From an uncultured bacterium (GTDB taxonomy: Bacteria; Tectomicrobia; Entotheonellia; Entotheonellales; Entotheonellaceae): 19,046 nt of DNA. Made by a program: the position numbers and the translations under genes. The stretch covers positions 1-19,046 of the forward strand of contig CBCXVS010000137.1 of assembly GCA_965178525.1 (NCBI GenBank), read 5' to 3'. This document shows, in pieces, positions 3,096 through 15,030 of the stretch. The notes below the pieces were generated by a model. The model did not search any database, had not been told where the DNA came from, and saw only the letters and a program-made list of their open reading frames with translations. Within the stretch, counting starts at the first letter, position 1; each line of letters opens with the position of its first letter.

Positions 3096-4073
3096 CTACC
3101 GCCAGCTCGGTGGCAGGTTGCAATGGATCTCGATATCCTGGAAAATGCGACTCGATCGAGCACCGTGGGTTTTGACCCACGGTGCCATCCGGTGGATCCC
3201 ATCCTCGAGGGTCATGTTTTGGCGGGCACCGAAGACGCGCTCGAGCTTACCGTGGTCGGAAAAGGCGTGCTGTACTTCCTGACGAGCGTCGAGATATCGC
3301 ACGCGACATGCACGACCCATGGCCCGTGCCACGGTCTGCGCCAGATCGTTGACGGTATGGGGTGTATCGGCACCCACGTTGAAGACCTCGTTGCGCGCCT
3401 CTGGCATCCGGACGGCCTCGGCAATAATGGGTGCCACGTCGCTAATGTGTGTGAAGGCTCGGGTTTGCGTGCCATCGCCAAAGATCGTCATCGGCTCGCC
3501 GCGCAGTAATTGATTCATGAAGATGCCCACGACGTTGCGGTACCGATCCCCTATGTTCTGGCGTTCACCGTAGACATTGTGGGGGCGAAGGATCACGTAA
3601 TCGAGGCCGAACAGGTTCTGGGAAGCGACGAGTTCTTGCTCTACCGCCAACTTGGCAATGCCATAGGAGTCTGCAGGAGTTGGCGTCATCGGCGTCTGCC
3701 CCGCGCCGTAGACGGCGATGGAGGATGTGAAGACGAAGCAGGCAATGTCGTGGTTGACCGCGGCGTTGATGAGGTTGACTGACCCAATCAGATTGTTGTT
3801 GTAGTTGAAGCGCTTGATGAAGTGGCTTAAGCCCTCAGCCGCATAGGTGGCGAGATGGTATACATAGGTGAACCCGTGCTCGGCAAACAGGCGGTCGACT
3901 AGCGTATGGTCGAGGATTGAACCCTGCACGCAGGTCGCCCCTGCCGGAACGTTCGCTGCAAAGCCGCCGCTCATGTCGTCGAGGACCACGACATCATGAC
4001 TCGCGCTGAGCAAGTGTTCCGCCACGTGGGATCCCATGAATCCGGCTCCGCCTGTGACGAGGGAGACGGGCAT
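3096..4073 (-). CDS. NAD-dependent epimerase/dehydratase (extended SDR family, GalE/RmlB-like).
   Basis: N-terminal Rossmann motif VTGGAGFMGSHV and catalytic YGIAK (YxxxK). Length 325 aa. AAGGAG SD 8 nt upstream of ATG 4073. Confidence 0.9.
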   Translation of the reverse strand: MPVSLVTGGAGFMGSHVAEHLLSASHDVVVLDDMSGGFAANVPAGATCVQGSILDHTLVDRLFAEHGFTYVYHLATYAAEGLSHFIKRFNYNNNLIGSVNLINAAVNHDIACFVFTSSIAVYGAGQTPMTPTPADSYGIAKLAVEQELVASQNLFGLDYVILRPHNVYGERQNIGDRYRNVVGIFMNQLLRGEPMTIFGDGTQTRAFTHISDVAPIIAEAVRMPEARNEVFNVGADTPHTVNDLAQTVARAMGRACRVRYLDARQEVQHAFSDHGKLERVFGARQNMTLEDGIHRMAPWVKTHGARSSRIFQDIEIHCNLPPSWR

Positions 4074-4400
4074 TGGTATGACTCCTTGATTGCAGCCTCA
4101 TAAATCTCAATAGATCCAGAAATATCTGGGCCTATTAATTCCTGTAAGGACCGAAACAAAACCCAATTTGTATTTTTCCTCTGGAGAATTGCCTCAAGGT
4201 CATTCTGTCCAGGTATTTATACATGCCATGTTGCCTCCGTACGTATGGTTCGCAGAGATCTTGTAAAAAGTAGATCACCCTAACGGTGTTTATGTCCACC
4301 TCAATCACGGCCATGATCCGATCATCGCGTACCGTTTGCGGCACGTTGAGGACGTGTTGGTAGGCGTTCTCAGGTACGTGTCGAGACTGGGTCAGTGCAT

Positions 4401-4614: not shown

Positions 4615-5418
4615 GTGGCAGCTACTATGACCGCAAAAGCCAATCCCTGGATGATATGTTCCACGCCGCAGCCACAGGCGCGCTTGCGTCTTTTCTGTTT
4701 TCCGTACGCGGGAGGCGGCGCCTCAGTGTATCGTACCTGGTCTGACGTGTGCCCGCCGGAAATAGAGCTGTGGCGTATTCAACTTCCCGGACGGGAACCC
4801 CGGCTTAGCGAATCGCTGTTTACCCGTTTGACACCGCTGGTGCAGACACTGGCCCCGATCCTCCGCCCGCATTTGCATAAGCCGTTTGTGTTCTTCGGCC
4901 ATAGTATGGGGGCACTGGTCGCCTTCGAACTCGCCCGGCGCCTGCGTCGGCATGACCGTCTCAGCCCGCTGCATCTATTCGTATCGGCGCACCGGGCGCC
5001 CCAGCTCCCGGATCCCGACCCACTCACCTACCCCTTGTCTACACCGGCGTTCATCGAGACCTTGCGCCGCTTGCAGGGGACGCCAGAGGCCATCTTGCAC
5101 AACGCGGAACTCATGGAGTTGATGTTGCCTGTCGTCCGTGCCGATTTTGAGCTCTGCGAGACGTATACCTATACGACAGCGGCGCCTCTGCCGTGCCCGA
5201 TTTCGGCCTTTGGCGGCTTCCAAGATGAGAAGGTAAGCCGTGACGAACTTGCCGAGTGGCGCGCGCAGACGCAGAGCGCCTTCATCCTGCGGATGTTTCC
5301 CGGCAACCATTTTTTCTTACACAGTAATCAGGCGTTACTATGGCGCGTGCTCTTCCGGGAGCTGGAGCCGCGCCTGCAGCAGATGACGGAGGAGGGCGTG
5401 TCGACCGAGTCGAGGTGA
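4615..5418 (+). CDS. Type II thioesterase (alpha/beta-hydrolase editing thioesterase of NRPS/PKS systems).
   Basis: LRLFCFPYAGGGASVYRTW N-terminal signature and GHSMG nucleophile elbow. Starts with GTG 4615 (in-frame ATGs at 4627 and 4651); no clear SD. Stop TGA 5416-5418. Confidence 0.88.
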   Translation: MAATMTAKANPWMICSTPQPQARLRLFCFPYAGGGASVYRTWSDVCPPEIELWRIQLPGREPRLSESLFTRLTPLVQTLAPILRPHLHKPFVFFGHSMGALVAFELARRLRRHDRLSPLHLFVSAHRAPQLPDPDPLTYPLSTPAFIETLRRLQGTPEAILHNAELMELMLPVVRADFELCETYTYTTAAPLPCPISAFGGFQDEKVSRDELAEWRAQTQSAFILRMFPGNHFFLHSNQALLWRVLFRELEPRLQQMTEEGVSTESR

Positions 5419-5523
5419 TATGAAGGGCCATTCCGTTTTCCACTTGTAGACGATTCCCCTTTTGGCAAAGGGGGCGAGGGGGAGAAAGGGAGGCGTTCCG
5501 GTTATCTATGCATAGGAGTTGTC

Positions 5524-5607
5524 ATGCCGCGCCTGCGGCACCCGGAAATAAGGAAAAACGTCTTTTACTCAGTCCTCAGTCCTCAGTCCTCAGTCCTTTT
5601 TTCATAG
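5524..5607 (+). CDS. Candidate upstream/leader ORF, 27 codons (MPRLRHPEIRKNVFYSVLSPQSSVLFS). TAG stop 5605-5607 overlaps the AGGAG SD of the downstream gene.
   Basis: AGGAG + 5 nt + ATG. The ATG lies in the 5' arm of the hairpin. The frame reads through the heptamer repeats and ends in CATAGGAG. The equivalent uORF exists in copy 2. Confidence 0.3.
   Translation: MPRLRHPEIRKNVFYSVLSPQSSVLFS
5569..5596 (+). repeat. Perfect heptanucleotide tandem repeat (TCAGTCC)x4.
   Basis: Read directly. The 14953-14973 copy has 3 units; the 4401-4428 copy has ~2. Confidence 0.95.
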
Positions 5608-5610
5608 GAG

Positions 5611-6228
5611 ATGATGATGGCAACGGCGCCGCGAGACGACCAAGAAGATACCACCATCTACAAAGTCGTGATGAATCACGAAGAACAGTATTCGATCTGG
5701 CCGGCCGACCGCGACAACCCACTTGGCTGGCAGGATGTGGGCAAGAGTGGGCTGAAGCCGGAATGCCTGGATTACATCGAGGAAGTATGGACGGATATGC
5801 GTCCGCTCAGCCTGCGCAAACAGATGGAGGAGGCGGCGCAACGCCCCGCGCCCCCTCCGCCGCCTCCGAGTGAGGAACCCGTGGCCGCTGACAGCCGGAC
5901 GGGCGACTCGCTTGTCGACCGCTTGAGCGAGGGGGACCATGCAGTGGAGGTTGGCCTGCGGCCTGACCGGACGGCGCAAGCCTTCAAAGAGAGTCTCGAC
6001 CGTGACTATGTCCATATCAAGTTCACACAGACCCAGGGCGGCACCGAGTTGGGTGTACGCCTAGACCGGGAACGAAGTGATTTGAGTCAGGCCGATTTTG
6101 AAAGCGCCTCTGGAACCGTGCATGTGGAAGGGGGGCTGACTCTGAACTATGTGTCCGTGCGATGCGTGGCGGATATTGATCTGACGACGCTCAGTGGGCG
6201 GGGCCATCTGGAGCCGGTGGAAGCGTAA
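5611..6228 (+). CDS. MbtH-like domain protein with a Pro-rich linker and an uncharacterised ~105-aa C-terminal domain.
   Basis: Residues ~15-75 carry the MbtH signature ([49 protein letters not shown]), then [12 protein letters not shown], then a domain with no motif I recognise. Three consecutive ATGs at 5611-5619; the third gives 6-nt SD spacing. Stop TAA 6226-6228. Confidence 0.85.
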
Positions 6229-6284
6229 GGGCATGGACGGCGCCGGGCAGAGTGTGGTGCTTTTTAGGCGTTTTTAGAGCGTTG

Positions 6285-6304
6285 AACGTTTAAACTTATA
6301 AGTT
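6285..6304. promoter_or_regulatory. AT-rich island with three overlapping palindromes (AACGTT 6285-6290, GTTTAAAC 6288-6295, AACTTATAAGTT 6293-6304) plus a TTTTTAG direct repeat at 6261-6277. Candidate operator/promoter for the downstream ATPase-fragment gene.
   Basis: Read directly. Compositionally distinct from the GC-rich flanks; ~170 nt upstream of ATG 6471. Confidence 0.3.
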
Positions 6305-6470
6305 CCTGGACAAAATTAGCGACATCGTTTTTCCAGAGGAAAAATATGAATTTAATTCTGTTCGGGCACTTAGGCGACATTTCCCGCCGGCTCTGTCCGC
6401 GTTCCTTCTATTGTGCTGTACTGAGCCAACGTATGTGGGGAGAGGCTGGGAGTTCGGGAGGGCAGGGAAG

Positions 6471-7256
6471 ATGCTCATCAGCGGTGCCTGCGTTGCTGCC
6501 GGGATCATGTATGCGGGACTCAAAACCTTGATCAGGCAGCGATCGCAACGAAAAGCGGCTAGGATTATTACGCAAAATGGTCAGGCCAACCAGACATCCT
6601 CGCCCGTGATCGAGGAAGATCGCCACCAGGAGATCGAGGTCCAGCTCTCTCGCGCCTGTGCGATTTCCTCAATTGCTGTAGGTTTATCGATCGTCAGTGC
6701 GTTCGGTTACCCCTTGTTCGGCGTCCTCAGCGCACCTCTCACGGTGTATGGCGCGATTCCCGCCTTCGAACAAGCCTCCGCTGCCATGCTCACCGAAAAT
6801 CGAAAATATATGTCGGTCGTGTGGTCCGCAGTTGTCATTGGCTCCCTCGCCACTGGGCGTTTCTTTTCGGCCGCAGTCCTTACCTGGCTCGATGATTTTG
6901 TCGTCCTGTGGTCCAATCGTTTGTCTTTGTTCAACAAACTCATTGTGGGCGAATTGGAACATCGCTACCAGCTCCTCACCCAACTCTACGGCGTCAAGCC
7001 CGCGTCCGTCTGGGTGCTGGTCGATGACGTGGGGCTCGAGATTCCTTTCTCGGAATTGCAAGTCGGTGATACGGTGGTAATGAGTACAAAAGAAGTGATT
7101 CCCGTCAGGGGTACGGTTGTCGACGGCACCGCGAGAGTCGTCCGGTGGCGGCCGGGCGGAAATGGACAACCCGAGAACAAAGAGATAGGGGATCAGGTTA
7201 CGGCCTCGACCTTGATCCTATCGGGGAGTATTAAAGTGCAAGTGGAAAGTCTCTGA
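6471..7256 (+). CDS. N-terminal fragment of a P1B-type (heavy-metal) P-type ATPase: transmembrane helices plus an actuator (A) domain. TGES motif degenerate (RPGGNG); no phosphorylation/nucleotide-binding domains. Possible pseudogene or repurposed truncated protein.
   Basis: A-domain signature LEIPFSELQVGDTVVMSTKEVIPVRGTVVDGTARV...ASTLILSGSIKVQV matches the CopA/ZntA actuator domain. Ends at TGA 7254-7256 with no DKTGT downstream in any frame. ATG 6471 is preceded by a purine-rich SD (gggagggcagggaag); the ORF-track start is an upstream TTG at 6411. Confidence 0.7.
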   Translation: MLISGACVAAGIMYAGLKTLIRQRSQRKAARIITQNGQANQTSSPVIEEDRHQEIEVQLSRACAISSIAVGLSIVSAFGYPLFGVLSAPLTVYGAIPAFEQASAAMLTENRKYMSVVWSAVVIGSLATGRFFSAAVLTWLDDFVVLWSNRLSLFNKLIVGELEHRYQLLTQLYGVKPASVWVLVDDVGLEIPFSELQVGDTVVMSTKEVIPVRGTVVDGTARVVRWRPGGNGQPENKEIGDQVTASTLILSGSIKVQVESL

Positions 7257-7287
7257 TCGTCCCGACACCACATAGGAGGAATGTCCA

Positions 7288-7542
7288 ATGGCTTTTGTAA
7301 GTTCTTTTTTCATCGTTGGAGGCGTTGGCGCTGTCATTTGGCAACTCAATCGCCGCAAGCAGAGACGGCTGTCAGGACAAAACGGCGACGAGGCGGTTCC
7401 CGCTGCAGCTCCGAGCGCGCCACCTGATGCCTCCCCAGCCCCAGCCGCACCGTCACCTGACCAACACGATGCGCCCGAGGCCTCTAGCGAGGAGCCTGAC
7501 GAGCCCTCTCCGCCACCGGAGACGGCGGCGCCAGAACGCTAA
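7288..7542 (+). CDS. Small single-pass membrane protein with an acidic Pro/Ala-rich disordered tail (84 aa).
   Basis: AGGAGG (7274-7279) + 8 nt + ATG 7288. N-terminal hydrophobic helix FVSSFFIVGGVGAVIWQL, then RRKQRR, then a PAAAPSAPPDASPAPAAPSPD... tail. Stop TAA 7540-7542. Confidence 0.6.
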   Translation: MAFVSSFFIVGGVGAVIWQLNRRKQRRLSGQNGDEAVPAAAPSAPPDASPAPAAPSPDQHDAPEASSEEPDEPSPPPETAAPER

Positions 7543-7562
7543 AGCGCCTCCGCTGATACGCT

Positions 7563-7609
7563 CGCATCCCTGGGCCAGGAGCGTCTGTCTTGATGAGCTC
7601 AGGGATGCG
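7563..7609. other. Strong hairpin: 10-bp stem (7563-7572 / 7600-7609, core GCATCCCTG/CAGGGATGC) with a 27-nt loop, between convergent genes. Possible bidirectional terminator lacking a clear U-tract.
   Basis: Inverted repeat read directly. Only a weak T-run (ggttta) follows on the plus strand. Confidence 0.3.
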
Positions 7610-7641
7610 GACCCGGTTTATGCCCAGCGCTTCCCCCCAGT

Positions 7642-8166
7642 TTATCTCTTGTGCATGATCGCCACGGGAGGCGGTTGAAAATCACGTGGCCACTGTGTCC
7701 TGTCCGTGTAGTGAGCGCCTTGCAAATCAGTCGATGCCTCGCCTTCCGTTGTGGTCAAGACCGCGTTGCTAAGATTGGCTCTGTGTAGTCTGGCGCCGTT
7801 CAAGAGGGCGTGTTTCAGGTTCGCACGGACCAACGTGGCAAAATCCAGACACCCGCCGCTGAGCATGGCTGCCGAGAGATCAGCGCCACTGAGATTGGCC
7901 TGGGTCAGATGGGCCCCTGACAGGCTGGCATGTACCATGGCGTCCACCAAATGGGCACGAATCAAGTTAGCGCCTGACAAATTGGCGCCCGACAAATTGG
8001 CGCTGCTCAAGTTAATCGAACGCAAATCCGCACCACGCAAATCCGCACCGCTCTGCTGCGTGGACGGCTCGCCCAGGTTGGCGCCCGAGAGATTGGCGCC
8101 AACCAGGTTGGCTCCTACCAAAAGTTGGCATGCATCAATTGCGCGCCGCTCAGGTTCACGCCCCAC
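7642..8166 (-). CDS. Pentapeptide-repeat protein, C-terminal portion. Likely the 3' part of a single gene with 8115-8786, disrupted by a 1-nt frameshift.
   Basis: Tandem A(N/D)LxG pentapeptide units. GTG start at 8166 overlaps the upstream ORF by 52 nt and has a stop 9 codons upstream in frame. Inserting one nt after AAC (~8122) fuses the frames into a continuous array ...MHANLLVGANLVGANLSGANL. Contains 15-nt tandem duplications at 7976-8005 and 8021-8049. Confidence 0.7.
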   Translation of the reverse strand: MGREPERRAIDACQLLVGANLVGANLSGANLGEPSTQQSGADLRGADLRSINLSSANLSGANLSGANLIRAHLVDAMVHASLSGAHLTQANLSGADLSAAMLSGGCLDFATLVRANLKHALLNGARLHRANLSNAVLTTTEGEASTDLQGAHYTDRTQWPRDFQPPPVAIMHKR

Positions 8167-8786
8167 AATGCCGCCCCAATCAGACGCACGCTATTCATGA
8201 CCGCTGCCCTGAGGTTGACGTTCGTGAGATTGACGCGCGTGAGAATCGTTCCGGTCAGGTCGGCGCCCGAGAGGTCAGCGCCATCGAGAATCGCTGCTGC
8301 CAAGTTGGCGTCTCGTAAATCGGCGCCAACGAATTTGGCTCGCGATAGGTTGGTTCTCACCAGGTCCGCGCCGCGTAGATTCGCCCCCGAGAGATCGGCG
8401 CCCGAGAGGTCGCTGCCCCGAAGGCGTGCCTGGGACAATAAGGCTCTGCTAAGATTGGCGTTACGGAGATCTAGGCCGCTTAACTCTCTCCCGCGTAGAT
8501 TGACGCCGATGCACGTCGGAGGACACCCGGCTGGCAAGGCGGCAGACTGGCACCCCGCCACGATGGCCAGGAGCGTCGCCATCGCCATGACCGGCCGGCA
8601 CACGTAAAGCGCCAGTTTGAGGGCCACAAGGTTTACAACATCAAGGTAAACAGGTGGCCACTCGGCGGTACGCCGTACGATGGCGATCAATCCTTGTAGA
8701 TGCGCCGGCGGCATAGGGACGCCGTTGTTGTCCATGACCTCTTGCCTCTCGGGGAACGGTGGCGGCGGTTTAAGGCGGCGGCGCAT
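8115..8786 (-). CDS. Membrane-anchored pentapeptide-repeat protein, N-terminal portion of the probable fused gene. TM helix, then a CPPTC-IGVNLRGR motif, then the repeat array.
   Basis: Paralogous to 8887-9807 (shared TM + CxPxCxGxNLRGR + pentapeptide architecture). Start uncertain: ATG 8786 lacks an SD; internal ATG 8735 (MDNNGV) is an alternative. Stop TAG 8115-8117. Confidence 0.75.
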   Translation of the reverse strand: MRRRLKPPPPFPERQEVMDNNGVPMPPAHLQGLIAIVRRTAEWPPVYLDVVNLVALKLALYVCRPVMAMATLLAIVAGCQSAALPAGCPPTCIGVNLRGRELSGLDLRNANLSRALLSQARLRGSDLSGADLSGANLRGADLVRTNLSRAKFVGADLRDANLAAAILDGADLSGADLTGTILTRVNLTNVNLRAAVMNSVRLIGAALWGVNLSGAQLMHANFW

Positions 8787-8886
8787 GCATCCGGAGAGCC
8801 GGGGGCAAGCGGGTCATGGCATCCACATGGATGCCTCGCGTCTCGGCCTGACGACACACCTTGCTCCGTTGCTGCGGATTTAAGCC

Positions 8887-9807
8887 TTACAACACCGGAT
8901 CCAGTCCCAAATGGTAACACTCATGCTGTGAGACGAAGACGCGAACTGCCGTGAGATCTGCCGACCTCAAGTCAACGCTGTGGAGGACGGCGCCGACTAA
9001 CAGCGCGCCGATTAAGTTGGTTTTATACAGGTTGGCAGACGCCAATGTGCTCCCGGCCAAGCTCGCGCCGGCGAGGTTGGCCTGCGTCAAGTCCGCTCCC
9101 GTCAGGTTGGCAAGGTTCAGCCATGCCCCCGAGAGATCGGCTTTGGTTAAGCGGCTGCCGCTTAAATCGGCTCGGCTCAGGCGACTCCCGCTCAATGTGG
9201 CTTCCCGCAAATCTGCCCCGATCAGACGTGCCGCGACCAGTTCAACCCCTGAGAGGTTGGCGCCACGCAAAAGCGCTTGGGTCACATCCGCCCCGTTGAG
9301 GATGACGCCGTCAAGTCGCACTTGCGTTAAGTCAAGCCCCGCCAAGTCGGCACGAATCAGGCGCGCGCCGCGCATATCGGCGCCACGCAGGATGGCTCCA
9401 CCCAAGTCCGCATCCGTCAAATCCGTCCCGAGCAGGGTGGCCTCTGTCAAGTCCGCATGTTTTAGATTCGCGCCAATGAGGCTGGCGCCTGAAAAATCCG
9501 CCGCGATCAGTTTGGTCGCACTCAGATCCGCCCGGCGCAAATTCGCTTCGATGAAGCCGGTTCCGCTCAAATCGAGACCATGCAAGTTGCGGCCTCTCAG
9601 ATTCATACCGACACAGTCCGGGGAGCATCGAACCGTGTGCACGATCCAAGAGCGTGCCACAAGAATCATGGCGCCGACAAGCGCCAGGGCGATAGCAATC
9701 CGAAGGTAGAGCATGCGTTTTAAAGTCGCACCCGATTGACCCAGCAGTATGGTACAGAGAACAATCAAGCCGACGAGAGCCGAGAGGATCACGGGTATAT
9801 GTATCAT
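8887..9807 (-). CDS. Membrane-anchored pentapeptide-repeat protein (two N-terminal TM helices, CSPDC-VGMNLRGR motif, ~40 pentapeptide units).
   Basis: 306-aa ORF. AGGAG immediately abuts ATG 9807 (0-nt spacing), so the start is somewhat uncertain. Stop TAA 8887-8889. Confidence 0.85.
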   Translation of the reverse strand: MIHIPVILSALVGLIVLCTILLGQSGATLKRMLYLRIAIALALVGAMILVARSWIVHTVRCSPDCVGMNLRGRNLHGLDLSGTGFIEANLRRADLSATKLIAADFSGASLIGANLKHADLTEATLLGTDLTDADLGGAILRGADMRGARLIRADLAGLDLTQVRLDGVILNGADVTQALLRGANLSGVELVAARLIGADLREATLSGSRLSRADLSGSRLTKADLSGAWLNLANLTGADLTQANLAGASLAGSTLASANLYKTNLIGALLVGAVLHSVDLRSADLTAVRVFVSQHECYHLGLDPVL

Positions 9808-9872
9808 CTCCTGTCTCTTCAGTTCGATGGCGCATGCATTCGTGTCACCTTCAGGGTAGGGGATACACCTTC

Positions 9873-9900
9873 CACACGTCCGGCAACTGCCGGGCGTGTG
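9873..9900. other. 12-bp-stem hairpin (CACACGTCCGGC aact GCCGGGCGTGTG; one position is a G.U wobble on the plus strand and an A/C mismatch on the minus strand) in the intercistronic gap between the 252-aa gene and the first pentapeptide gene.
   Basis: Read directly. No U-tract in either orientation, so likely a regulatory or stabilising hairpin rather than a canonical terminator. Confidence 0.3.
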
Positions 9901-9971
9901 AGTCTATCATACGTACGGGTTGGAGGGACGAGGCTGATTGATGTAGACGAATTCGGCGTCGTTATCGTGTC

Positions 9972-10730
9972 TTAGCTCTCCGATTGGGATGCTGCTGTGG
10001 ACGGTGACACGGCTGCCGGCCCTTGTCCCACTTCCTGCAGTGCCCGCTTGAATGCCTCGTTGTCTTTTTCGGCGACCTCGTCGATCGCCCGCAAGATGAG
10101 TTGTGGCTTCTCGTTTGTTGGCACGGCATCGTAATCCGACAGCGTCACGGACGTCAAATTATTCTCCACGAGTCTGACGAAAAGTGCTTGCCCAAAGGCT
10201 TGATTCCGCCTGCTGTCCGGATTGCGCTCAAATGCCAGGAGTTGCTTGTAAACATTCAGGTCATACTGCGATACGGCCGCTTGCTGGCAGGCCCAGCAAT
10301 ACTGCAACACCACCTGACTCATATCTTGCGCCAGTTGAGGATTTTTGTTGAGTTTGCCCTCCACTAATTCCCCAAGTTCAAAGCCCATATCTGAACAGAA
10401 TATCGCTAAGTGGTCGGTGAAGGCCTGAAGGCTGTTCTCAGAGAGCGACGCGATCCAATTTCTCACGTCCTCATTGGCTGCAGGCGCATTGGCGACCCAC
10501 GTGTGAAACTGCTGCGGTAACTCGGCGGATTGCCGGTTCATCACTTTATCGTACCAGCCTTGGAGCCAACTCGTCCCGGCCTCAATACCACTGCTGATCG
10601 TTTCTTGTATCGGCTCGGTCATGGACCCCCAGGTCGGTAGTTGCTCCTGCTTCTGCAAACGCCTATCCACGACGATGGACGCCGCCCCAACGACGACCGC
10701 GAGAAGGGCCAGAGGGACAAGTACCATCAT
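9972..10730 (-). CDS. Hypothetical protein with an N-terminal TM anchor and a ~230-aa helical soluble domain of unknown function.
   Basis: 252-aa ORF. AAGGAG SD 4-7 nt upstream of a tandem ATGATG. Start overlaps (ATGA) the stop of the 30-codon upstream ORF. Stop TAA 9972-9974. Confidence 0.75.
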   Translation of the reverse strand: MMVLVPLALLAVVVGAASIVVDRRLQKQEQLPTWGSMTEPIQETISSGIEAGTSWLQGWYDKVMNRQSAELPQQFHTWVANAPAANEDVRNWIASLSENSLQAFTDHLAIFCSDMGFELGELVEGKLNKNPQLAQDMSQVVLQYCWACQQAAVSQYDLNVYKQLLAFERNPDSRRNQAFGQALFVRLVENNLTSVTLSDYDAVPTNEKPQLILRAIDEVAEKDNEAFKRALQEVGQGPAAVSPSTAASQSES

Positions 10731-10819
10731 TCGTCTCCTTTTCTGAAGAACTTCCTATCCACGGCGATCGACCCGATCGTTGCCACAATGCATACAAGCA
10801 GCACAGATAGGATTCCCAT
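10727..10819 (-). CDS. Small hydrophobic peptide, 30 aa (MGILSVLLVCIVATIGSIAVDRKFFRKGDE), translationally coupled to the downstream 252-aa gene.
   Basis: Perfect AGGAGG (rc of 10825-10830) + 5 nt + ATG 10819. One TM-length hydrophobic stretch plus a basic tail. TGA stop overlaps the ATG of the next gene. Not in the ORF track (<60 aa). Confidence 0.45.
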   Translation of the reverse strand: MGILSVLLVCIVATIGSIAVDRKFFRKGDE

Positions 10820-10867
10820 AAAAACCTCCTTTAGTTTTTCGGCACGGGGAAACGACCCTCACCCCAA

Positions 10868-10891
10868 CTCTCTCCCTCGCCAGGGAGAGGG
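10868..10891 (-). other. GC-rich hairpin (8-10-bp stem CTCTCCCT cgcc AGGGAGAG) 58 nt downstream of the SPFH stop. Possible attenuator or partial terminator.
   Basis: Read directly. No adjacent U-tract. Confidence 0.3.
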
Positions 10892-10948
10892 GGTAAAATT
10901 GATGCCCAGGTACTTCGTTCCCTTTTCACGCTAAGAGCCCCTCGCCAT

Positions 10949-12028
10949 CTACGGAGGCGGTCTTGATGTCATCAAGTCGGGCGATGAGGCATCCATCGAC
11001 AGCGGCCGTTGTCTGCCGTCATGTTCATCTAGTTTCGGGAGGGGCAGGATCAACGGCGTGTGACTGGGTACCAGTATGGCGTGCAGCTTTGGTGACAACT
11101 TCTCAATATATTGATAGGTCAACAAATTGGGATTTTGTTCCAGCGCTTTTGCGATCAATGCTAAGGCATCCGCTTGGCCTTCGGCCTCGATTTTGATCGC
11201 GTCCTTTCGGCCTGCAGCCATGTTGCGCATCTGTTGGGCTTTATGTAGCGCTTCCTCCTTTCCTTCTAAGGCAATTTGTTTGCGCTCAATCGACTCGGCA
11301 TACTCCGCTGTAAAGGTAACATCACGAAGGAGGACCTGGTCCAGAATGAAACCTCTGTTCGCAAATTCTGTCCGCAAGATCCGATCGAGCGTGGTTTCTA
11401 GGTCTCTGAGGTCCGAACTATTGACTTCTCGCACGGTAAATTGTGAGACTTGCGTGCGGACGAAGCCCCGCGTCACCGGTCGTACCAGATCGACGATATA
11501 ACGGTTTTGCCAGTCCGTATGTACCGAAACGGCCTGTTCGGTGTCAACACGGAAGATGACCGAGCAATCCAGGCGTACTTCTTGGCCATCGCTGGTGCGG
11601 GCCCGGATCGAATCATCACCCAGCTCCGCCCCTTCGGCAGGTCTGCCAGACATGGTATAGGTTTGCCAGTAGATGGGATACGAGACATCACGCTCGAGAA
11701 AAGGCAGAATCCAATGCAACCCGGCTCGTAACGGCTGTGGCCGGATGCCGCCTGGAGAGACGAGAGAGACGACCACCGCCACGTAGGGGGGTTGCACAAA
11801 AACCAGGGCGGCGCTGAGTAGACTAATGCCAAGGATCAACAAAAACGGCAGCATGACGCGAGAGGAAAGCAACCGCAGAATACCGAAACGAACCCCCTGT
11901 CGCCACCCGGTGGCGATACACATGTAGATCGCATATATTGCAAAGAGCCACCATAAGATGACGGTGGTATATCCCAACAGTGTATCGAATGTGGTGATGG
12001 TGAAGGAGCCTGTCCCTTGCATAGGCAC
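10949..12028 (-). CDS. SPFH/band-7 domain membrane protein (stomatin/prohibitin/HflK-C family).
   Basis: Two N-terminal TM helices followed by an SPFH domain (…QVSQFTVREVNSSDLRDLETTLDRILRTEFANRGFILDQVLLRDVTFTAEYAESIERKQIALEGKEEALHKAQ…). GTG 12028 or ATG 12022 start. Stop TAG 10949-10951. Confidence 0.88.
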   Translation of the reverse strand: MPMQGTGSFTITTFDTLLGYTTVILWWLFAIYAIYMCIATGWRQGVRFGILRLLSSRVMLPFLLILGISLLSAALVFVQPPYVAVVVSLVSPGGIRPQPLRAGLHWILPFLERDVSYPIYWQTYTMSGRPAEGAELGDDSIRARTSDGQEVRLDCSVIFRVDTEQAVSVHTDWQNRYIVDLVRPVTRGFVRTQVSQFTVREVNSSDLRDLETTLDRILRTEFANRGFILDQVLLRDVTFTAEYAESIERKQIALEGKEEALHKAQQMRNMAAGRKDAIKIEAEGQADALALIAKALEQNPNLLTYQYIEKLSPKLHAILVPSHTPLILPLPKLDEHDGRQRPLSMDASSPDLMTSRPPP

Positions 12029-12149
12029 AGCTATCTCTAATGGCTTTGGTTATCGAGGAGAAGCCGTATTGGCGCGGCCGATGAGATACATCACCAACGG
12101 TGCGGAAACTATGGTTATACGTCAATATATGTGGCTCTAAGCCCAAGCT

Positions 12150-12177
12150 ATTATAGAGACCACTTCGCATAAGTCAA
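12150..12177 (-). promoter_or_regulatory. Near-consensus sigma70 promoter on the minus strand: -35 TTGACT (rc of 12172-12177), 16-nt spacer, -10 TATAAT (rc of 12150-12155), oriented toward the SPFH gene.
   Basis: Hexamers and spacing read directly. ~115-nt leader to start 12028. Striking in a GC-rich genome. Confidence 0.45.
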
Positions 12178-12220
12178 GGGCAATCGTAAACTTGAATACG
12201 TTGCTGCAGCGCCGAACACA

Positions 12221-13330
12221 CTACGAGGTTGGACTCGCTTTGTTACTGTAGCGCTTCTGCCATTCGTGCAGAAGGCGGCGGCGATTCGCCGATGCCCATG
12301 GCACGTCTGTGCCGAACCGCCGCTCTGCCGCCGCCTCGGGAACGCCTTTGGGATGGGGGACATCCGTCTTCATGGCCGTGACGGCATGGTATTTCCAGTC
12401 GACTCGCATGGCACGCGCACTGAGGGTCCAGTCGAGAAAGGTCATCGCGGCGGGTTTGATGCGGGGGGTTTTGAGTAGGGCGCTAGCCGCTATGTCCCAA
12501 GCCGCGCCCTCGGCGGGAAAGACGATGTCAATCGGCGCCTCCTGGTGGTTTTCGATGATCGCTATGCCGGCACCGCCATACGAAATCCCGATGGGGACAT
12601 CCCCGCTTGCGGCCAACTGGCAGGGCTTTTCGGAGGAGGGGAGGTACTGCGCGATATTCTGATGCAACGCATCGAGAAAGACCCAGCCCTTGGCCTCTCC
12701 CAGATGATGTAGGATCGCCGCCATCACGAGGTAGCCGATCTTGGATACGGTAGGATTCGGCATGACGATATGCCCGCGATAGTCTGGCTTGATCAAATCT
12801 TGCCAGGACAAAGGCACGTCCGCGTCACGCTTCGCCGTCTTGTTCTTCAAGGCATCGGAATTGACGCAAAAGGCCGACATCCGCACCTGCATACCGACCC
12901 AATACGGTGGGGTATGGGTATCCCGGAACAGCGGGGGCACATCCGCAAGCCCCTTGGGCGCGTAGGGGCGGAGCATGCCGTGCCATTCCAGGAGCATCAA
13001 AAAGGTCGCGGATACGCCCCACATCACGTCGGCTTGCAGCGTGTTGCGCTCGGCATACAACCGCTTCACGAGCGTGTCAGATGAGGCTTCGGTGACGACG
13101 GTGACGTCGATCTTGGGATAGGTGGCGCGAAATGTTGCCAGATCATGTGCGAGCCGGTCAGAGTGCCGCGCCGTATAGACAGTGATCGTCCCCGCCTCAG
13201 GTGAGTTGGGTTCGTGGCGTGTGCAGCCACCCGCCGTGATCAGGATGACGAACGCGACCGCACGCACCAGGACGCTATACATCGACGATCTCGCGCCCCT
13301 GGCGGCGCCAGAGGCAACACATCCGGGCAT
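12221..13330 (-). CDS. ABC-transporter substrate-binding protein, family 1 (FbpA/AfuA-like Fe3+-, thiamin- or 2-AEP-type); probable lipoprotein.
   Basis: Signal/lipobox-like N-terminus (…VAFVILITAGGC), then ITVYTARHSDRLAHDL…ADVMWGV, typical of this family. Start ATG 13330 is 3 nt after the upstream gene's stop; alternative ATG 13282. Confidence 0.8.
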   Translation of the reverse strand: MPGCVASGAARGARSSMYSVLVRAVAFVILITAGGCTRHEPNSPEAGTITVYTARHSDRLAHDLATFRATYPKIDVTVVTEASSDTLVKRLYAERNTLQADVMWGVSATFLMLLEWHGMLRPYAPKGLADVPPLFRDTHTPPYWVGMQVRMSAFCVNSDALKNKTAKRDADVPLSWQDLIKPDYRGHIVMPNPTVSKIGYLVMAAILHHLGEAKGWVFLDALHQNIAQYLPSSEKPCQLAASGDVPIGISYGGAGIAIIENHQEAPIDIVFPAEGAAWDIAASALLKTPRIKPAAMTFLDWTLSARAMRVDWKYHAVTAMKTDVPHPKGVPEAAAERRFGTDVPWASANRRRLLHEWQKRYSNKASPTS

Positions 13331-13333
13331 CTC

Positions 13334-14932
13334 CTATGGGTCTATCCACACACTATGGTAGCTTCCGTTATCGTATCCCGTCGGCGCCGGCACCCAGCCT
13401 TTCAACTTCTTGGCCATGAACCAGGGGCCGGTCGGCCAGCCCAAGGTCACGATGGGCGTCGCGCCCTTCAAGATACGGCGCTGATACGCGTGAAAGATCG
13501 CCTGACGTTTGCTCTCATCAAGCGCACGCAACCCCTGTTCGTGCAATTGATCGAGTTCAGGCATCTGCAGCTTGCCGTAATTCCGTGGGGCATTTGACGT
13601 CCAGGTAAACGAAAACAGCGTACTTGGATCCATCATAATCAACCCCGTTCCCTGCACCCCGATCATGGTAAAATCGCCCCGGGCCCAAGCGGCAAAGCCG
13701 GCGGCGCTTTCCCAGGTCCGAAGGTTGGCTCGGATGCCGATCGGCTTCAACTGTTGGATGACCAAAGAGGCCACATCCACGTAGTTTCCCACGGAGCGTA
13801 CGGCGACTTCAATATCCAGGCCATCGGGATAGTGCTTGGCCACGAGGCGTTTGGCTTCGGCAATATCCGGGCCTTTGGGCTGCCGACAGCCAGGCGCTTG
13901 CAAGACTTCTTCTTTGGGGAGGGCATAGTCGCCAAACACTTCTGATGGCATAATCACACACGGTACAATAAACCCATCATATGCTCTGGCGGCAATCTCC
14001 TGGCGATCGATTGCCAGGTAGACGGCCCAACGCATCTCTGGATTGTCGAACGGGGGTTTGGTGCTATTCATATGGATCTGCGAGATACCCCCAGGGCCGG
14101 ATTGCTGATACTGCAGATCCTTGCGGGCCTTGCGGATCTCTTCGATTTGCTTGCTATTGAGCGGCGGCCAGCCATACCAGAAATCGACTTTCCCAGCCTT
14201 AATCGCCGCGATTTGCGTGGCGCGCGACGTGATGATGTACTGCTTGACGCCATCCAAATAGGGCATGCCCTGAATGAAGTAGTTGGGATTACGCTCCCAC
14301 TCGATGATATTGCCACGGACGTATTTCTTCAACTTGAACGGTCCCGTGCCAATCTGACTATCCGGCTGGGTCAGATCGCCGTCGCGTTCCAGAATATGCT
14401 TGGGTAGGATCTTGCACCACGCCGAGGCCAGAGCCGACAGGATAATCAGATTGGGGAACTTGAGCTGCACGATCACGGTAAAATCGTCCGGCGCTTCCAC
14501 GCGCTCGATCATCGGACGCAGCATGGAACCGCATCGCGGGCTGCGGAATTCCGGATCGAGCATCCGTTGCAAACTGTATACGGCATCGGCCGACGTGAAG
14601 GCGGCCCCATCATGCCATTTGACGCCCCGGCGCAGATGGAAGGTATAGACCGTGCCGTCATCCGAAACCTCCCAGCGCTCGGCGAGATCCGGGCTGACCG
14701 TCTTGGGTTTTTCCGGACCCCATTGCAGCAAACCGCTGTAGAGCCCAACCACCGATTGCGACACGGCAAGTGGCGTCTCGGTATGCAGGTCCAGACGCGC
14801 CGGGTCGGCATAATTGAACCAGTTCAAGATGCCGCCGCGTTTCGGTGTGTCCTCTCCCCGGGCACTTCCGAGTCCCAGGGTCCATAGCGCGACGATGCTC
14901 ACGAGAACGACATAGTGCAGATGGCGGCGCAT
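13334..14932 (-). CDS. ABC-transporter substrate-binding protein, family 5 (DppA/OppA/NikA-like peptide/nickel/metallophore type); secreted.
   Basis: Signal peptide MRRHLHYVVLVSIVALWTLGLGSA, then GGILNWFNYADPARLDLH…LYSGLLQW (SBP_bac_5 pattern); 532 aa. AGGAGG + 5 nt + ATG 14932. Stop TAG 13334-13336. Confidence 0.9.
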   Translation of the reverse strand: MRRHLHYVVLVSIVALWTLGLGSARGEDTPKRGGILNWFNYADPARLDLHTETPLAVSQSVVGLYSGLLQWGPEKPKTVSPDLAERWEVSDDGTVYTFHLRRGVKWHDGAAFTSADAVYSLQRMLDPEFRSPRCGSMLRPMIERVEAPDDFTVIVQLKFPNLIILSALASAWCKILPKHILERDGDLTQPDSQIGTGPFKLKKYVRGNIIEWERNPNYFIQGMPYLDGVKQYIITSRATQIAAIKAGKVDFWYGWPPLNSKQIEEIRKARKDLQYQQSGPGGISQIHMNSTKPPFDNPEMRWAVYLAIDRQEIAARAYDGFIVPCVIMPSEVFGDYALPKEEVLQAPGCRQPKGPDIAEAKRLVAKHYPDGLDIEVAVRSVGNYVDVASLVIQQLKPIGIRANLRTWESAAGFAAWARGDFTMIGVQGTGLIMMDPSTLFSFTWTSNAPRNYGKLQMPELDQLHEQGLRALDESKRQAIFHAYQRRILKGATPIVTLGWPTGPWFMAKKLKGWVPAPTGYDNGSYHSVWIDP

Positions 14933-15030
14933 TTACCCCTCCTATGAGAAAAGGACTGAGGACTGAGGACTGAGTAAAAGACGTTTTTCCTCATTTCCGG
15001 GCGCCGATGGCCTCGGCATGACGGTTCCTC
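14933..15030 (-). promoter_or_regulatory. Conserved leader element, copy 2 (minus-strand orientation). GAGGA SD, hairpin (GCCGA/TCGGC, 15003-15017), a 25-codon uORF (14942-15019) ending TAG inside the AGGAGG SD, and (TCAGTCC)x3 (plus-strand GGACTGA at 14953-14973).
   Basis: Reverse complement aligns with 5511-5610. Differences are concentrated in the hairpin, where the base-pair changes are compensatory (C-G to A-U, G-C to G.U), and in heptamer copy number. Confidence 0.6.

Follow-up and report, generated by a model that had tools for sequence, protein, structure and literature searches.

A duplicated heptamer-bearing repeat, possibly a recent gain, at the ribosome-binding sites of two unrelated genes in an uncultured Entotheonellaceae bacterium

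Heptameric repeats of bacteria and the Entotheonellaceae element

Tandem repeats with a seven-nucleotide unit are a known over-represented class of simple sequence repeats (SSRs) in bacteria, and are sometimes situated just 5' of start codons (PMC4679880, PMC4692102, PMC2700814); both PMC4679880 and PMC4692102 cite Mrazek et al. 2007 for over-represented 7-nt SSRs. Here we describe a short intergenic element built around an array of this kind, which is present in two inverted copies in a 19,046-nucleotide stretch of DNA (the window: contig CBCXVS010000137.1 of assembly GCA_965178525.1) from an uncultured bacterium of the Entotheonellaceae. Copy A precedes a gene for a fusion of MbtH to a CBF_beta-like domain, and copy B precedes the first of a pair of genes for solute-binding proteins, SBP_bac_5 (hereafter SBP5) followed by SBP_bac_6/8. 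The closest described systems are the TAACTGA repeats of Beggiatoaceae, the heptamer elements of Geobacter metallireducens and heptameric SSRs in general.

The direct repeats of the heptamer TAACTGA are intergenic and were described from marine Beggiatoaceae, some Cyanobacteria and some Bacteroidetes (MacGregor 2015, PMC4679880). They comprise 2-6 perfect units, mostly in one orientation, just 5' of the start codons of unrelated genes, and their 169 sets show a patchy phylogenetic distribution; a translational role has been proposed but is unproven, with factors of the S1, Csp or CsrA type as candidates (PMC4679880). The window element resembles them in that perfect intergenic tandem heptamers lie just 5' of the starts of unrelated genes, and the reverse complement of its unit (GGACTGA) has ACTGA in common with TAACTGA. 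It differs in the unit itself, CTCAGTC (reverse complement GGACTGA/GACTGAG), which reads CUCAGUC in the mRNA sense, and in the position of the array, 8 nt upstream of a strong canonical Shine-Dalgarno sequence (SD), whereas the TAACTGA repeats overlap the position of the ribosome-binding site (RBS) and canonical SDs are rare among them (PMC4679880). Unlike those repeats, the array is part of a longer duplicated unit, whose non-repeat sequence on both sides of the array is common to the copies, and two copies are known as against 169 sets.

Multicopy elements of G. metallireducens contain 4-5 tandem heptanucleotides, and include a GGACCGG family with 49 copies as well as the MTYCTGA sites (Aklujkar 2009, PMC2700814). 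Like the window element these are short and dispersed, with about four heptamer units plus alignable flanks, and they were annotated as putatively regulatory; unlike it, they have other sequences, are present in tens of copies, also occur within genes, and have no described linkage to an SD or start codon (PMC2700814). Other heptameric arrays, termed long simple sequence repeats (LSSRs) or short tandemly repeated repetitive sequences (STRRs), are exemplified by GGGAATC in Xanthomonas and GGGGAYT in Nostoc (PMC4692102). With these the window arrays share perfect 7-nt intergenic repetition, variation in unit number and, in the case of some heptameric SSRs, an arrangement in inverted pairs that can form stem-loops. 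Their unit is not G-rich and thus has no quadruplex potential, unlike the G-rich heptamers. Moreover, ordinary SSRs have unique flanks, whereas in the window element about 60 nt of non-repeat flank has been duplicated together with the array.

Two further types of system invite comparison. Miniature inverted-repeat transposable elements (MITEs), repetitive extragenic palindromes (REPs) and bacterial interspersed mosaic elements (BIMEs) are small dispersed non-coding repeats with a hairpin and a possible target duplication, whose intergenic insertion can alter expression. The window element is likewise small, non-coding and intergenic, with a hairpin and a possible target duplication, but it has no terminal inverted repeats, contains an internal microsatellite, and has no partner transposase or RAYT gene visible in the window. 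REPs and BIMEs in particular have an imperfect-palindrome core, a high copy number and a RAYT gene, and are usually found 3' of genes; the window element has a GC hairpin of 5-6 bp, but sits 5' of genes and has no RAYT in the window. The second type comprises inversion switches such as the sap locus of Campylobacter fetus, in which conserved 5' ends of genes serve as the inverted repeats, together with invertons. Inverted repeats at the 5' ends of genes are also the arrangement seen here, but these repeats are just 84-90 nt long with an exact core of 40 nt, and no recombinase was detected in the window, nor is there any sign of two orientations.

The two copies and their ribosome-binding sites

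Copy A occupies positions 5521-5610 of the window on the forward strand (90 nt) and copy B positions 14939-15022 on the reverse strand (84 nt). Their pairwise alignment contains 77 matches and 6 mismatches, i.e. 93% identity over 83 ungapped positions, and two gaps, one of 1 nt in a hairpin loop and one of 7 nt that amounts to exactly one CTCAGTC unit. The divergence is restricted to the outer ~30 nt, where the differences cluster in the hairpin loop with the stem kept, and the inner 60 nt are nearly invariant. In the 40 nt beyond each end the copies match at 11/40 and 12/40 positions, which is the chance level for unrelated flanks. The window contains exactly two occurrences of a 24-mer core, GGAAAAACGTCTTTTACTCAGTCC (5552-5575, forward; 14967-14990, reverse), where 200 shuffles give an expectation of 0, and a repeat search of the window recovers the pair as the arms 5531-5590/14952-15011 and 5575-5610/14939-14974. 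The repeat pair is confirmed as genuine and well above chance, and its 93% identity, combined with the random flanks, indicates a recent common origin of the copies.

These results bear out the central observation of an earlier sequence-only reading, namely that two inverted copies stand immediately 5' of the start codons of unrelated genes, and add that each copy also holds the SD of its gene. The identities given there for the downstream genes, an MbtH fusion and a pair of solute-binding proteins, are likewise borne out. Its alignment of about 95 bp from 5511 to 5610 captured a real homology, which however spans 5521-5610 against 15022-14939; bases 5511-5520 have no homology to copy B except AGGA, and the exact run, given there as at least 46 nt, reaches a maximum of 40 nt (5551-5590 = 14991-14952).

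Read in the direction of the downstream gene, both copies consist of GTC, ATG, a GC hairpin of 5-6 bp, CCCGGAAAURAGGAAAAACGUCUUUUA, (CUCAGUC)3-4 and CUUUU(U/C)UCAUAGGAG. Copy A thus proceeds from the hairpin through an A/T-rich spacer to (CTCAGTC)4.3, T6 and CATAGGAG; copy B is built in the same way, except that it has 3.3 heptamer units and a hairpin loop longer by one base. The hairpin of copy A (UGCCGC-GCCU-GCGGCA; 5525-5540, forward) comes from a predicted fold, and that of copy B (UGCCGA-GGCCA-UCGGCG; 15002-15018, reverse) was read from the sequence, with RNAalifold keeping a 5-bp stem. Where copy A has an inner C-G and an outer U-A pair, copy B has A-U and U-G, and most of the substitutions that separate the copies belong to the hairpin loop and the closing pairs. 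The arrays, CTCAGTC x4.3 at 5568-5597 (forward) and x3.3 at 14952-14974 (reverse; AGGACTG on the forward strand), are both 100% perfect according to Tandem Repeats Finder, and a 14-mer of the array has 5 matches in the window against 0.12 expected. Perfect arrays that differ by one unit are as expected for slippage. The element accordingly shows the perfect 7-nt arrays of at least three units and the difference in unit number that characterize SSRs, but not their locus-unique flanks: the two copies have non-repeat sequence in common on both sides of the array (45 nt 5', 15 nt 3'), so that the unit is more than an SSR.

The array ends 13 nt before the ATG in copy A (5597 to 5611) and 19 nt before it in copy B (14952 to 14932), with a canonical AGGAG in between. 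This AGGAG belongs to the right end of the element, CATAGGAG, at 5603-5610 (forward) in copy A, where it is the SD of the MbtH-fusion gene, and at 14939-14946 (reverse) in copy B, where it is the SD of the SBP5 gene. The element end is the only SD for each of the two genes, and hence the copies cannot be neutral for translation initiation. The earlier proposal that the element is directly followed by ATG holds for copy A, which abuts the start codon; in copy B 6 nt (GGGTAA) lie between CATAGGAG and the ATG at 14932. Altogether CATAGGAG occurs 6 times in the window against 0.32 expected (3662, 5511, 5603 and 7271, forward; 13338-13331 and 14946-14939, reverse), and in 5 of the 6 cases it precedes a start codon. 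In one of these, at 13338-13328, the SBP5 gene ends with the TAG of the octamer, and the ATG of the SBP_bac_6/8 gene follows immediately. This arrangement identifies TAG-GAG-ATG as a native coupling junction, and the source genome seems to favour it for coupling or as an RBS context. Both copies of the element recreate a junction of this type, with an SD-borne TAG before the start codon.

The TAG in question (5605-5607 in copy A; 14944-14942 in copy B) is also the stop codon of a mini-ORF in each copy. Mini-ORF A (MPRLRHPEIRKNVFYSVLSPQSSVLFS; 5524-5607, forward) has 27 codons plus TAG and is open through the whole element, and mini-ORF B (MPRPSAPGNEEKRLLLSPQSSVLFS; 14942-15019, reverse) has 25 codons plus TAG, with the start and stop of mini-ORF A but another frame in between; the +1 and -7 indels jointly keep the ATG...TAG frame open in both copies. 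An SD-like motif lies 5 nt before each mini-ORF start, AGGAG in copy A (ATG 5524) and GAGGAA in copy B (ATG 15019). In copy A this position is held by a second CATAGGAG, just left of the element (5511-5518, forward), perhaps as an 8-bp target duplication or as the native SD after its displacement; copy A is therefore bracketed by CATAGGAG (5511, 5603), and copy B by AGGA only. A leader peptide is rejected, as the frames of the two mini-ORFs differ through the middle, and given that the peptide is not conserved any role would reside in the act of translation and not in its product.

No inverted repeat of 8 nt or more, and thus no terminal inverted repeat, was found in either copy plus flanks, and neither a sigma-70-like promoter nor an intrinsic terminator was detected inside either copy. 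Reading by eye gave no convincing match to sigma-54, ECF, Fur or IdeR motifs. Upstream of copy B there are two terminator-like hairpins with T-rich tails (15170-15114, reverse), which would shield the SBP operon from transcription entering from upstream and would leave it with a promoter no more than ~90 nt from the element.

Absence from relatives and a proposed origin by duplication or insertion

The best protein matches of both downstream genes come from Candidatus Entotheonella and other Entotheonellaceae (Tectomicrobia); the MbtH fusion is 87% and SBP5 89% identical to its best match, with no exact protein match on record, and orthologues of matching length (P0001, 202 aa; P0121, 532 aa) back both start codons. 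The element is absent upstream of these closest orthologues, which lie in the loci L004 (MbtH fusion) and L001 (SBP5), and also from the loci L203-L208 and from 80 MbtH-fusion metagenome loci (L123-L202). In L004 the spacer between the thioesterase and MbtH genes is about 76 nt (~73 nt by a second estimate) and unrelated, versus 192 nt in the window; in a tblastx comparison homology ends at the thioesterase end and resumes at window position 5607 = L004 9994, i.e. at the SD/ATG. In L001 the 67 nt upstream of the SBP5 gene are unrelated to the element and read ...ATGACtgagaAGGAGGAGTAAATG, which the window resembles when the insert of copy B is taken out (...ATGACagaatcgAGGA joined to GGGGTAAATG).

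The search for further copies used nhmmer in place of a covariance model, since there are only two sequences, against 1.48 Mb of target DNA including the 80 metagenome loci, plus ~110 kb of DNA from Entotheonella relatives. It gave nothing below E=1 in L123-L202 and nothing at E<=10 in L001-L004 and L203-L208, and all matches outside the window were driven by the heptamer array alone. Exact scans with the non-repeat core returned 0 matches for a 24-mer in GTDB genomes, a 20-mer in JGI metagenomes and a 19-mer in IMG/VR.

For two copies that are 93% identical, sit at non-homologous sites and are absent in the nearest relatives, recent gain is the simplest explanation. We therefore prefer, with confidence that is evenly balanced, a recent DNA-level event, specific to this lineage, in which a small non-autonomous intergenic repeat (~84-90 nt) was duplicated or inserted at two RBSs, with a possible coupling and slippage effect; we infer that the element was gained and not lost, and that it spread by a copying mechanism. 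Each copy would have landed in or next to the AGGA(G) SD of an unrelated gene, at pre-insertion sites that would read ...CATAGGAG-ATG (A) and ...TCGAGGAGGGGTAAATG (B). With its end in ...TCATAGGAG the unit would re-supply an SD at the right distance, so that the genes stay translatable. The displaced or left-hand SD (AGGAG in A, GAGGAA in B) might then drive translation of the 25-27-codon mini-ORF, which would traverse the element and stop at the TAG inside the new SD, and a stop at this point could couple translation to the downstream gene, like TAG-GAG-ATG between the two SBP genes. If the array gained or lost one 7-nt unit, the mini-ORF frame and the leader length would change, and the putative result would be heritably variable expression, or phase variation, of both loci. 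Such effects of the element on translational coupling and through slippage are plausible.

Several points weigh against this origin. Only two copies are known, both within one 19-kb window. The copies have no terminal inverted repeats, and no recombinase, transposase or RAYT was found among the Pfam, NCBIfam and PHROG matches of the window ORFs, several of which are without any match. The duplicated flank is clean in copy A only (8 bp), and the AGGA of copy B is also the SD consensus. The gene upstream of the SBP5 locus differs in L001. A clean empty-site alignment with the orthologues was attempted, but the intergenic DNA is too diverged to give one. The mini-ORF peptide is unconserved in the middle, and by a rough estimate an open 27-codon frame has a probability of ~27% by chance and a common stop frame one of ~1/3. 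Lastly, the predicted pairing of the SD with the last UCCU is no different from that in shuffled controls.

Alternative explanations and the array in other genomes

The sequence-only reading had suggested a shared cis-regulatory or RNA leader that would mark a regulon. According to this explanation the element is the 5' UTR of both transcription units, and a trans-acting factor co-regulates the MbtH-fusion gene and the SBP operon post-transcriptionally; we consider it unlikely, as we do the corresponding candidates for the factor, RNA-binding proteins of the S1, Csp or CsrA type that would act on (CUCAGUC)n or on the GGA motifs CGGAAA, AAGGAA and UAGGAG. It draws on the equal orientation and position of both copies relative to the start codon, SD included, on the almost unchanged inner 60 nt and the preserved stem, and on the precedent of heptamer repeats directly 5' of start codons that were proposed to be translational regulators (PMC4679880). 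A relative also carries a comparable array: in an Entotheonella-like 8-Mb genome (L001 12719-12741, also L002 and L003) an Amidohydro_2 gene with the SD AGGAG is preceded, 10 nt 5' of this SD, by a perfect (CATCCTT)3.3 on the gene strand. In addition, UCCU:AGGA pairing is predicted to mask the SD in copy A (P~0.96).

However, no orthologue that was examined has the element upstream, and no Rfam family corresponds to it, the whole window giving 0 matches at gathering score and E<=10 scans of both regions giving only noise with E>1. The fold energies are no better than those of shuffled sequences (z-scores of the minimum free energy -0.79 and -0.40, not significant), and RNAalifold finds 0 compensatory pairs, although two sequences provide little power. 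Sequestration of the SD by the last UCCU is predicted, but is not significant against the controls, in which 20% and 5.5% of shuffled upstream sequences are at least as occluded. The array also shows no 5'-of-start bias elsewhere (see below), and the 93% identity of the copies is equally explained by recent duplication. Taken together, the comparison with orthologous loci, Rfam, the folds and the generic nature of the heptamer core do not support an ancestral conserved leader that defines a regulon.

The array itself is widespread. Among the matches listed for GTDB genomes, (CTCAGTC)3 was found in >118 stretches, from Acidobacteriota, Chloroflexota, Cyanobacteriota, Gemmatimonadota, Desulfobacterota, Nitrospirota, Planctomycetota, Bacteroidota and other phyla. 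In IMG/VR there are 33 contigs or stretches, including an array inside a phage ORF, where it encodes ...SVLSPQSSVL.... In other genomes only 9/128 arrays have an SD and start codon within 45 nt downstream, so that no bias towards positions 5' of start codons is seen, and a crude analysis of neighbouring ORFs places many arrays at gene 3' ends. The outcome that the earlier reading had named as fatal to its leader, a dispersed repeat with no 5' bias, is essentially what is seen for the heptamer core, the whole unit standing outside this observation. Across 167 arrays the flanks show no conserved positions. Three-unit arrays of control heptamers with the same composition are present in 13, 6 and 3 stretches of IMG/VR, as compared to 33 for CTCAGTC and 107 for TAACTGA. 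As the controls also form arrays, CTCAGTC is only moderately enriched; it is a moderately favoured heptameric SSR and not the signature of a shared mobile element.

The wide spread, the palindromes and the 12-mer AGAYGTTTTTCC had at first suggested that (CTCAGTC)n defines a mobile element common to many bacteria, a reading that was rejected in view of the unconserved flanks. The 12-mer adjoins arrays in L015 (2074-2230), L081 (3742-3802) and L005 (reverse strand, ~75 nt downstream of the 3-unit array 4763-4783), in Syntrophobacteraceae-like and Blastocatellia genomes. It fails as the mark of a shared element, as the window element carries it on the other strand relative to the array, i.e. with an orientation opposite to that in L015, L081 and L005, and control heptamers also form arrays; its sharing could reflect chance or a shared palindromic loop. 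The arrays in L005-L122 are often two-armed palindromes, (GACTGAG)n-loop-(CTCAGTC)n, with A-run and T-run flanks like those of bidirectional terminators (e.g. L057 3450-3512, L090 3457-3574, L095 3216-3291, L111 1183-1242 and L078 6766-6860). They adjoin arrays of the related units CTCAGCA, CTCATCA and CTCAGCC, and GACTGAG has TGA in all three frames over three units. Related phages in IMG/VR keep a fixed array spacing, with inverted pairs 687 nt apart (L210 771-791/1458-1478; L217 4663-4683/5350-5370) and direct pairs 2236 nt apart (L228, L240); the copy that encodes SVLSPQSSVL lies within a 487-aa ORF.

These arrays bear on a second alternative, in which the copies are functionally inert leftovers, i.e. 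independent or duplicated microsatellite spacers whose position at start codons is coincidental. Heptamer arrays arise commonly, as the control units show, and they occupy every kind of context, including the inside of phage ORFs. An independent origin, however, leaves unaccounted for the non-repeat sequence common to the copies, 45 nt before and 15 nt after the array, and both copies are in the same distance class from the start codon and carry its only SD. We regard inert leftovers as quite improbable.

A stronger form of the preferred recent insertion would make the element a portable hypermutable translation module, in which slippage, with one unit equal to one frame shift, toggles mini-ORF coupling at the MbtH and solute-uptake loci, and in which the pair may also flip the 9.3-kb segment between the copies. 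This extension appears to us very improbable. Finally, the copies as a recombination substrate, where a crossover in the 40-nt core inverts the 9.3 kb that they bracket (5611-14938) and swaps the gene behind the thioesterase operon and the right flank, as a switch or a source of rearrangement, is a slight prospect: the geometry fits, with inverted copies each fused to a start codon and genes facing inward, the core is identical and divergence in the outer ~30 nt would stay with the flanks, and there are rearrangement scars nearby (a P-type ATPase that breaks off at ~280 aa, pentapeptide-repeat ORFs that are split, no synteny with relatives beyond thioesterase-MbtH), but the bracketing repeats of an inverton are not accompanied by an adjacent site-specific recombinase or invertase in the window, 40 nt of identity is a poor substrate for RecA, nothing points to an alternative orientation and the content of the segment is miscellaneous with no obvious either/or logic, and inversion finds no support here.

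Genomic neighbourhood and biological implications

The MbtH-fusion gene downstream of copy A (MbtH, PF03621, plus CBF_beta-like domain; 5611-6228, forward) encodes 205 aa, and the SBP5 gene downstream of copy B (13334-14932, reverse) 532 aa. The latter is joined by the CATAGGAG-ATG junction at 13338-13328 to the gene for the second solute-binding protein, SBP_bac_6/8 (12221-13330, reverse). Upstream of copy A lies a gene for a type II thioesterase (4615-5418, forward), syntenic with the thioesterase-MbtH pair in L004, and synteny of the window with relatives is confined to this pair. The designation of MbtH as an orphan, made from the sequence alone, thus needs qualification, as its type II thioesterase partner is retained; in relatives the pair, or MbtH alone, adjoins NRPS/PKS genes, and in Entotheonella relatives the MbtH-fusion gene stands beside such genes. 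The MbtH plus CBF_beta-like fusion family is large, with 3536 homologues (E<=0.001), the majority of which come from metagenomes of soil and sponges.

Several features of the vicinity are of separate interest. The ORF at 6411-7256 (forward) is truncated, its match to a heavy-metal P-type ATPase being limited to the N-terminal ~280 residues, and in the Entotheonella relative L206 a full-length 703-aa ATPase adjoins the MbtH-fusion gene; the truncation suggests a rearrangement breakpoint near 7256-7290. At 7642-9807 (reverse) there are three consecutive or overlapping pentapeptide-repeat ORFs (174, 223 and 306 aa) with a 15-nt periodicity (repeat family D1), which may be one large gene broken by frameshifts. 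An inverted repeat of 44 nt (4145-4188/6329-6372), 75% complementary and with a 15-nt exact core TCCAGAGGAAAAATA, brackets the thioesterase and MbtH-fusion pair and could mark a mobile or recombined two-gene module. L001 also contains a 17-mer repeated three times in tandem (4029-4080).

If the element did arise by recent insertion, a microsatellite-bearing repeat can enter an RBS without killing the gene, since it carries a replacement SD. The case also counsels caution, in that a 'shared leader' within one genome can be a recent duplication and not the signal of a regulon. It is a further example among bacterial heptameric repeats, which are poorly understood, and opens no long-standing question. 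Were the element a phase-switch module, a microsatellite switch would have been copied onto the NRPS helper MbtH and onto solute uptake in a lineage of sponge symbionts. Under the preferred recent insertion, Entotheonella-type symbionts, which are valued for their natural-product pathways, would have two loci, for an MbtH helper and for two orphan binding proteins, whose expression may track repeat number.

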